IMG/VR virus record: IMGVR_UViG_2537562231_000016
DNA: 7,537 nucleotides
Origin: a virus
Lineage: Duplodnaviria; Heunggongvirae; Uroviricota; Caudoviricetes
Strand: one strand, 5' to 3'
Shown here: piece by piece, positions 5,795 through 5,897 of the stretch
Numbering within the stretch: the first letter of the stretch is position 1
Layout of the letters: every line of letters starts with the position of its first letter
Program-made: the position numbers and the translations under genes
The notes under the pieces: generated by a model
What the model was told of the DNA's origin: nothing
Database searches by the model: none
What the model saw: only the letters and a program-made list of their open reading frames with translations

Positions 5795-5820
5795 TCATAA
5801 AAAACCCGCCAGGCGGCGGG
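5795..5820 (-). terminator. tR'-like intrinsic terminator about 85 bp downstream of the Q stop (CCCGCC-aggc-GGCGGG hairpin followed by UUUUUUA on the minus strand)
   Basis: All-GC 6-bp stem at 5805-5820; minus-strand downstream sequence is TTTTTTATGACTGA. Position immediately after Q fits the lambdoid pR'-tR' architecture. Confidence 0.5.
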
Positions 5821-5869
5821 GTGTAAAAAATCTTCTAACGTCAGGCATAAAACGCCCATCGTTAGAGCA

Positions 5870-5897
5870 AATTTACCACAGATTCGGGAAAAATCAA
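5870..5897 (-). promoter_or_regulatory. Candidate late promoter pR' (-35 TTGATT at 5897..5892, 16-nt spacer, -10 TAAATT at 5875..5870) directly downstream of Q
   Basis: Minus-strand sequence after the Q stop reads TAG tg ttg TTGATT tttcccgaatctgtgg TAAATT. Location relative to Q and the downstream terminator supports a Q-dependent late promoter; any qut site is not resolved. Confidence 0.4.

Follow-up and report, generated by a model that had tools for sequence, protein, structure and literature searches.

A predicted lambda-type late-gene control cassette past the Q gene of a lambdoid prophage

Two described late-gene control units, those of phages lambda and 82, follow the same logic: a promoter (pR'), a sigma-dependent promoter-proximal pause, a Q-binding element (QBE) within the promoter and an early terminator (tR'). 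The QBE sits between −35 and −10 in both phages (PMC4914094). In lambda, AACGAT at +1 to +6 is a −10-like element through which sigma-70 pauses the polymerase at +16/17; GGG at +7 to +9 is the discriminator of this pause element, and the pause has a G-rich upstream hybrid edge and a pyrimidine 3' end followed by G (PMC5001585). In the lambda Q-loading complex, sigma region 4 relocates to a −35-like TTGACT (PMC9388147). The Q-lambda family corresponds to PF03589 and Q82 to PF06323 (PMC9388147, PMC7171158). Phage 82 thus has a non-homologous Q protein; its pause element also differs, lying 9 bp further downstream with an extended −10 of its own and giving a pause at +25/26 (PMC5001585). Here we analyse a 7,537-nt stretch of Caudoviricetes DNA (IMG/VR record IMGVR_UViG_2537562231_000016; the whole stretch is called the window below), in which an earlier note, made from the sequence alone, had proposed a lambdoid late-control unit at positions 5795-5897, immediately past a Q antiterminator gene.

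We estimate at about 0.85 the probability that this region is a late-gene regulatory cassette of a lambdoid prophage and of the lambda (Q-lambda family) type, judging from its sequence. The assignment is made because the region is homologous to lambda pR', because its Q protein belongs to the same family, because a phylogenetic footprint picks out the expected elements and because the same layout follows Q proteins that are only 28-59% identical. The unit is unannotated but is an ordinary member of a textbook class.

Promoter, pause element, terminator and Q family

All genes of the window lie on the − strand, and the region examined is the late-control region of a lambdoid prophage. The TAG stop codon of Q (5905-5903, −) is followed by 5 nt and then by a −35 hexamer, TTGATT (5897-5892, −), which begins 6 nt past the stop. 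A 16-nt spacer, TTTCCCGAATCTGTGG (5891-5876, −), leads to the −10 hexamer TAAATT (5875-5870, −), which is identical to that of lambda pR'; the last three bases of the spacer (TGg, 5878-5876, −) fit the TGn of an extended −10. At the level of sequence this is a sigma-70-type promoter (−35, 16 nt, −10) pointing toward the late genes. The predicted start is A5863 (+1), from which the pause element AACGAT (+1 to +6) and GGG (+7 to +9) extend over 5863-5855 (−).

The resemblance to lambda is close in this segment. From the −10 on, the window reads TAAATTTGCTCTAACGATGGG and lambda pR' reads TAAATTTGACTCAACGATGGG, with 17 of 21 positions identical in the same register. The −10, a 6-nt discriminator, the pause element AACGAT and the GGG are shared with lambda, the last two in both sequence and register, and position 5863, the approximate start predicted by the earlier note, equals lambda +1 by alignment. 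The core TAAATT-N6-AACGATGGG (5875-5855, −) has one match in the window as against 0.01 expected by chance; a literature search for the motif AACGATGGG returned unrelated primer matches only. By analogy with lambda, we infer a pause at +16/+17 (A16 and U17, then G18; 5848-5846, −).

The Q gene (6724-5903, −) encodes a protein of 273 aa that matches PF03589 (E=1e-49), its sole Q-family match in Pfam. Searched with phmmer against structures in the PDB, it matches lambda Q 7ubm (E=3e-39) and also aligns to 4mo1 and 7ubj; residues 1-122 align to lambda Q 1-123 and residues 182-273 to lambda 116-207. These data bear on a second reading, a phage-82-type unit in which the antiterminator is of the Q82 family, the pause element lies at about +10 to +15 and has an extended −10 of its own, and the polymerase pauses at +25. 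Such a unit would also be placed directly after the Q gene, with the general architecture common to all lambdoid late units (PMC9388147). However, the Q protein of the window is PF03589 and not PF06323 (PMC9388147, PMC7171158), and its −10-like element occupies +1 to +6, GGG following at +7 to +9, whereas that of phage 82 is placed 9 bp further downstream and is accompanied by GCC at +15 to +17 (PMC5001585). The Q family and the position of the pause element refute the phage-82-type reading at the sequence level, and we give it practically no weight. Phage 82, which the earlier note had chosen as comparator, should consequently be replaced by lambda (PMC9388147, PMC7171158, PMC5001585). The distinction tells which mechanistic model applies and which mutations are relevant, namely those in A2 and T6 of AACGAT, in GGG and in the spacer.

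As in lambda, an intrinsic terminator lies ahead of the late genes. The tR'-like hairpin CCCGCC-GCCT-GGCGGG, with an all-G·C stem of 6 bp and a 4-nt loop, occupies 5820-5805 (−; +44 to +59) and is followed by a T6 (U6 in RNA) tract at 5804-5799 (−; +60 to +65). It was recovered independently by two methods, a terminator scan and RNA fold prediction, and the hairpin alone has a predicted energy of −12.6 kcal/mol. The window has a single perfect 6-bp stem made up entirely of G·C pairs and followed by T6; none was present in 100 dinucleotide shuffles. Counting from +1 at 5863, termination here would yield an RNA of about 63-66 nt. The earlier note had singled out the compactness of the unit. This is the family norm: across the 22 lineages in which the terminator was found, the leader has a median length of about 67 nt (range 57-170), and lambda is the long outlier, the T-run of its tR' lying about 190 nt past +1. 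The lambda leader is 194 nt long. The core of what the note had proposed holds: the promoter hexamers just past Q, the GC hairpin and the U6 tract are where it had placed them when read on the − strand, and its interpretation as a lambdoid late-control unit, predicting a short terminated RNA and Q-dependent late genes, is supported by the homology, the Q family, the footprint and the recurrent layout.

A bidirectional terminator was considered and ruled out, as the + strand is without a T-run after the hairpin. The hairpin (5799-5820, −, with its T-run) is also a mosaic junction at which BLAST partners switch: similarity to phage Evi runs from Q to the end of the T-run, and similarity to many Stx2 phages begins at the hairpin and continues past it. 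Past the T-run, relatives (L002, L042, L077-L079, L031 and L065) carry at least four unrelated modules, among them a small ORF plus methylase, or tRNAs directly.

Conservation of the unit and the candidate Q-binding element

Of 5426 complete E. coli genomes, 1851 contain a 201-nt region that includes the unit, and in 811 of these the identity is ≥99%. Strain 83972 and many B2 strains have identical copies, and the copies in O157:H7 are 88% identical. The records inspected leave the promoter and terminator unannotated, the sole annotation here being the end of an 'antitermination protein' gene. In a prophage type carried by about a third of complete E. coli genomes, the cassette would switch on the lysis and cargo genes.

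Scanning viral contigs for the core TAAATT-N6-AACGATGGG gave 71 unique sites, about 59 of which are directly downstream of a Q-lambda-family gene. Two contexts recur. The lambda-type context has a 207-aa Q and a −10 placed 68 nt past the last codon; the window-type context has a 273-aa Q, always with 30 nt from the last codon and always with a hairpin at +41 to +61. A footprint was drawn from 41 unique window-type variants. The −35 is variable in 0 of 6 columns, though the 8 nt around the Q stop just upstream vary in 7 of 8. The −10 varies in 1 of 6 columns (sole variant TAAAAT), GGG in 0 of 3 and the pause element in 2 of 6, its rare variants AATGAT, AAAGAT and AACTAT all retaining A2 and T6. 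Each arm of the hairpin stem varies in 2 of 6 columns, one change being a C→T that gives a G·U pair. Elsewhere variation is nearly free: 6 of 6 columns in the discriminator, 4 of 4 in the hairpin loop and 35 of 36 in the 36 nt past the T-run.

The same layout of promoter, pause element and terminator follows Q proteins 28-59% identical to that of the window in Enterobacter, Dryocola, Kalamiella, Erwinia, Pectobacterium, Yokenella and others, and also in the cryptic prophage Qin of strain K-12. There, the product of ydfT (quuQ) is a long-form Q with the same insertion relative to lambda as the window protein (see below) and 40% identity to it, and the layout is similarly compact: TTGCAT, 17 nt, TAAAAT, 6 nt, AACGATGGGC, a GACGTTA further on, a hairpin at about +43 to +60 and a T-run. 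Qin differs in its spacer class (TTCAAAAA...TGG), in a −35 about 33 nt past the stop and in its downstream genes, cspF/cspB. No annotation of the Qin promoter or terminator was found in the RefSeq record of K-12. The Stx2a phage Stx2_EH1910 (LC567834) is closer to the window, being 89% identical over the 3' end of Q, the promoter, the terminator and a small ORF, with the same gene order (ydfU, rusA, quuQ, small ORF, methylase, three tRNAs); its promoter and terminator are likewise unannotated. The difference lies past the tRNAs, where Stx2_EH1910 has stx2AB and the window has STnc100 and no toxin. The presence of the same Q, promoter and terminator upstream of stx2AB suggests that the same unit controls toxin expression in such strains.

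Two further scans concern the extent of the family. A metagenome scan for additional variant pause elements gave 110 unique sites, 101 of them chance matches, and no new lineage. Near-identical lambda Q/pR' sequences were seen in assemblies labelled Bacillota, Collinsella, Kitasatospora, Bradyrhizobium, Shewanella, Segatella and others (L231-L250, L261), mostly on short contigs; these are almost certainly lambda DNA contamination of the assemblies.

The spacer is a candidate QBE. It is identical in an Enterobacter locus (L205) whose Q has only 59% identity to that of the window, and spacer classes follow the Q subfamily: TTGAATAA…TTGGG with lambda-like, TTCAAAAA…TGG with Qin-like and TTTCCCGAA.CT.TG with window-like Q proteins. 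A spacer that is kept within a Q subfamily and differs between subfamilies shows the pattern expected of a QBE.

Several observations weigh against the assignment, limit its reach or set the unit apart from that of lambda. The promoter hexamers score 8/12 and the site was unreported by the promoter scan. Sites scoring ≥8/12 are not in excess, with 20 in the window against 27.7±5.3 in dinucleotide shuffles, and neither are those with a TGn (1 against 2.0±1.4). By themselves, the −35 and −10 hexamers are no better than chance and prove nothing alone; the case consequently rests on homology and conservation. The start site, the pause and termination are themselves predictions. The position of lambda TTGACT is taken here by TTGCTC (5870-5865, −), a weak, degraded match that coincides for the most part with the 6-nt discriminator, where the footprint shows most variation, and a role for it in the relocation of sigma region 4 is doubtful. 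The spacer, 16 nt against 17 in lambda, cannot be aligned with the lambda QBE, the shared GAAT being shifted 3 bp relative to the −10, and a different QBE is therefore expected. The −35 begins after only 5 nt past the Q stop in the window, compared with 44 nt in lambda. The Q protein carries an insertion of about 60 residues relative to lambda Q (residues 123-181; 6182-6358, −) in the zinc-ribbon 'arm', adding two CXXC motifs. Finally, many copies of the unit are in possibly defective prophages, and it may be inactive in a given host.

Some of these differences may be informative in their own right. The non-alignable 16-nt spacer, the degraded TTGCTC and the Q insertion together suggest that DNA recognition by the window Q may differ from that by lambda Q; the insertion may form a second zinc ribbon and alter the reading of the QBE. 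A long-form Q with a different spacer would be a natural variant for studying DNA recognition by proteins of the Q-lambda family. The window Q has four CXXC(X)G motifs (CSCCHG, CPECGGKG, CKDCRGRG, CQRCGGRG) as against two in lambda Q, and it gives a sub-threshold match to the Pfam family DnaJ_CXXCXGXG (27.3 bits; cut-off 32.7). QuuQ of K-12 has a shorter form of the same insertion.

The chance-level score of the hexamers leaves room for another explanation, in which the hairpin merely ends the early-right operon after Q, the hexamers are a chance look-alike and there is no separate late promoter. The hairpin would indeed also stop any non-antiterminated transcription coming through Q. However, this explanation leaves three findings unaccounted for: the exact lambda pR' core with its pause element in register, the invariance of −35, −10, pause element and GGG beside freely varying neighbours, and the recurrence of the layout after Q proteins down to 28% identity. 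We regard it as improbable and retain the lambda-type cassette.

For this cassette, the activity of the promoter, its start site, the pause, the efficiency of termination, the binding of Q and the read-through that depends on it are inferred, with the lambda Q mechanism as the model for the steps (PMC9388147). The sigma-70 promoter (TTGATT, 16 nt, TGgTAAATT) would fire constitutively from A5863. Bound sigma-70 would then recognise AACGAT and GGG as a −10-like element and the polymerase would pause at about +16/+17. Without Q, the polymerase would escape and terminate at the hairpin and U6 (+44 to +65), freeing the short RNA. With Q present, the 273-aa protein would bind the spacer, as candidate QBE, and load on the paused complex, making it resistant to terminators. 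The Q-modified polymerase would read through tR' and at least four later terminator-like sites (5492-5475, 3965-3948, 3744-3723 and 1153-1125, all −) into the methylase, tRNA, esterase and lysis genes.

Leader RNA and its 5'-terminal stem

The fold predicted for the leader RNA (−21.9 kcal/mol, z=−2.8) consists of a 5' stem-loop at +1 to +27, an unpaired linker and the terminator. The 5'-terminal stem-loop (5863-5837, −) is present in both the minimum free energy and the centroid structure. It has an outer stem, AACG/CGUU, and an inner stem, GGGCGU/AUGCCU, with −8.6 kcal/mol for the stem-loop alone, and nucleotides 1-4 of the RNA have pairing probabilities of 0.71-0.99. The A/U-rich single-stranded linker AGAAGAUUUUUUACAC (5836-5821, −; +28 to +43) is 16 nt long, has a mean pairing probability of 0.14 and varies in 11 of its 16 columns.

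Pairing of the pause-element RNA is not peculiar to the window. Lambda too has a complement of its pause-element RNA (AACGA/UCGUU), and nearly all leaders of the Q-lambda family carry, 8-27 nt downstream, a sequence reverse-complementary to the start of the RNA (CGTT where this is AACG, TCGTT where it is AACGA); the comparison draws on loci L003, L203-L256 and L269-L341. Variant pause elements have matching complements: AAGAAT/ATTCTT (24 contigs), AATGAT/GTCATT, AATG/CATT and AACAA/TTGTT. AATAAT is another variant whose complement is changed to match. Of the 26 lineages with a Q gene confirmed upstream, 25 can form, from their own sequence, a stem of 4 or more Watson-Crick pairs anchored at +1/+2; in 7 of 8 variant lineages, pairing is better with the lineage's own pause element than with AACGAT.

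The helix formed by positions 1-5 and 23-27 was assessed on a MAFFT alignment, made independently of structure. In it, 85.8% of cells are paired, against 16-49% when the partners are slid; six cells are changed on both sides, a number reached in 0 of 500 shuffles, and the covariation score is 0.199 against 0.121±0.019. Conservative tests on the variant lineages alone gave p≈0.03. A label-permutation test gave p=5e-5, but the 18 canonical lineages share ancestry and this value was taken to be inflated for that reason. Tested sequence by sequence, the stem of the window (4 bp, p≈0.6) is not significant, the only sequences to stand out being lambda (p=0.004) and L249 (p=0.02). RNAalifold found no consensus structure in 24 lineage leaders. 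Conservation of the inner stem GGGCGU/AUGCCU is not claimed, as single variants break it without compensation.

The complement usually ends at +1 (the window repeat, CTAACG/CGTTAG, runs two bases further upstream), and its distance from the 5' end varies among lineages. Both features are more readily explained by an RNA stem than by a DNA site at a fixed position, and they lend indirect support to the assignment of the start. Nevertheless, with related lineages the covariation support is moderate and amounts to a lead rather than a result. We tentatively propose, at somewhat under even odds, that late transcripts of the Q-lambda family, that of the window included, begin with a selected 5' stem formed by the pause-element RNA (+1 to +4/5) and its complement 8-27 nt downstream. 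If this is true, the stem would add an RNA-level element to a textbook system. It could guard the late mRNA, and the short RNA as well, against decay that depends on the 5' end. Alternatively, by folding beyond the Q nozzle it could keep Q locked on the transcript, as the phrase 'especially after RNA folding' hints (PMC9388147). No description of such a stem was found in the literature searched, older literature lying outside that search.

Two related observations concern alternative pairing. A second copy of CGUU straight after GGG (+10 to +13; 5850-5854, −) could pair with +1 to +4 to form an alternative small hairpin. In lineage L330, where the pause element is AACAAT, the second copy reads TGTT and is likewise compensated.

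The shape of the leader raises the question of whether the pR'-tR' RNA of about 65 nt has, besides being part of the switch, a function of its own, as a constitutive Hfq-binding small RNA (sRNA) acting in trans like StxS or IsrK. StxS (the pR'-tR' RNA of Sp5/Sp15) and IsrK (Gifsy-1) are, like the predicted RNA, short RNAs from antitermination-controlled phage promoters in lysogens; StxS is such a by-product and antiterminated promoters have been proposed as a source of sRNAs (PMC7547250). The predicted 5' stem-loop, the unpaired AGAAGA-U6 linker and the terminator with its U-tail are a typical sRNA shape, and the element is found in as many as 1851 complete E. coli genomes. Against this function, the linker, which is the sole candidate seed, is among the more variable parts of the unit, and Rfam gave no gathering-level match in 5700-5950, isrK reaching only 11 bits with a cut-off of 50. 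StxS differs in being 258 nt long and processed by RNase E to 74 nt, with Hfq binding and targets demonstrated (PMC7547250), and no sequence or Rfam relationship of StxS or IsrK to the predicted RNA was found. On balance we consider a trans-acting role unlikely, though far from negligible. The sub-threshold Rfam matches (RF_site2, rseX, STnc220, Trp_leader, isrK and others; 11-20 bits with cut-offs of 41-80) were set aside as generic chance matches to terminator-shaped sequence.

Gene order and neighbouring features

Upstream of Q, the window encodes a DUF968 protein (7440-7108, −) and RusA (7095-6721, −). The first gene past tR' is a 65-aa winged-helix-like ORF (5676-5479, −) with a weak match to TrmB (E=0.0026, below the cut-off); the phiP27 record calls its homologue a TrmB family regulator. 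The terminator of this ORF was located by the terminator scan at 5492-5475 (−), with a T-run to 5465, and the stop codon of the ORF sits within its stem. Then follow an N6/N4 DNA methylase (5328-4279, −), tRNA-Met/Arg/Arg (4229-3980, −), the STnc100 sRNA (3903-3714, −; Rfam 132 bits with a cut-off of 47), a nanS-p-type sialate esterase (3107-1236, −), a P21-type holin (1163-870, −) and a DUF1327 protein (865-521, −). The genes from 5328 to 521 (−) are the presumed dependents of Q read-through.

Further terminator-like sites from the terminator scan, all on this strand, are 3965-3948, 3744-3723 and 1153-1125. In the earlier note, terminators at 5465-5492 and 3723-3744 had been cited as consistent with the late-control unit. 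Both are real terminator-like sites, but neither bears on the pR'/tR' unit, and the one at 3723-3744, the 'third terminator', forms the 3' end of STnc100, identified at the Rfam score given above. Both would need to be read through by a Q-modified polymerase.

The terminator-like hairpin and T-run at 1125-1153 (−) follow the esterase stop (1236) and precede what is probably the true start of the holin. A preprint on Pas sRNAs places PasA/PasC between esterase and holin (bioRxiv 10.64898/2026.05.13.724894); Rfam gave no match at 1125-1153 (−). According to the same preprint, STnc100 is a known prophage sRNA related to PasD, and PasD is directly upstream of the sialate esterase gene in a representative phage (bioRxiv 10.64898/2026.05.13.724894). 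In the window, STnc100 lies between the tRNAs and the nanS-p esterase, the position occupied by stx2AB in the 89%-identical Stx2_EH1910. The interval between STnc100 and the esterase (3107-3713) contains a 111-aa ORF on the + strand (3353-3688) without a Pfam match, and it may be non-coding filler where related phages hold toxin genes.

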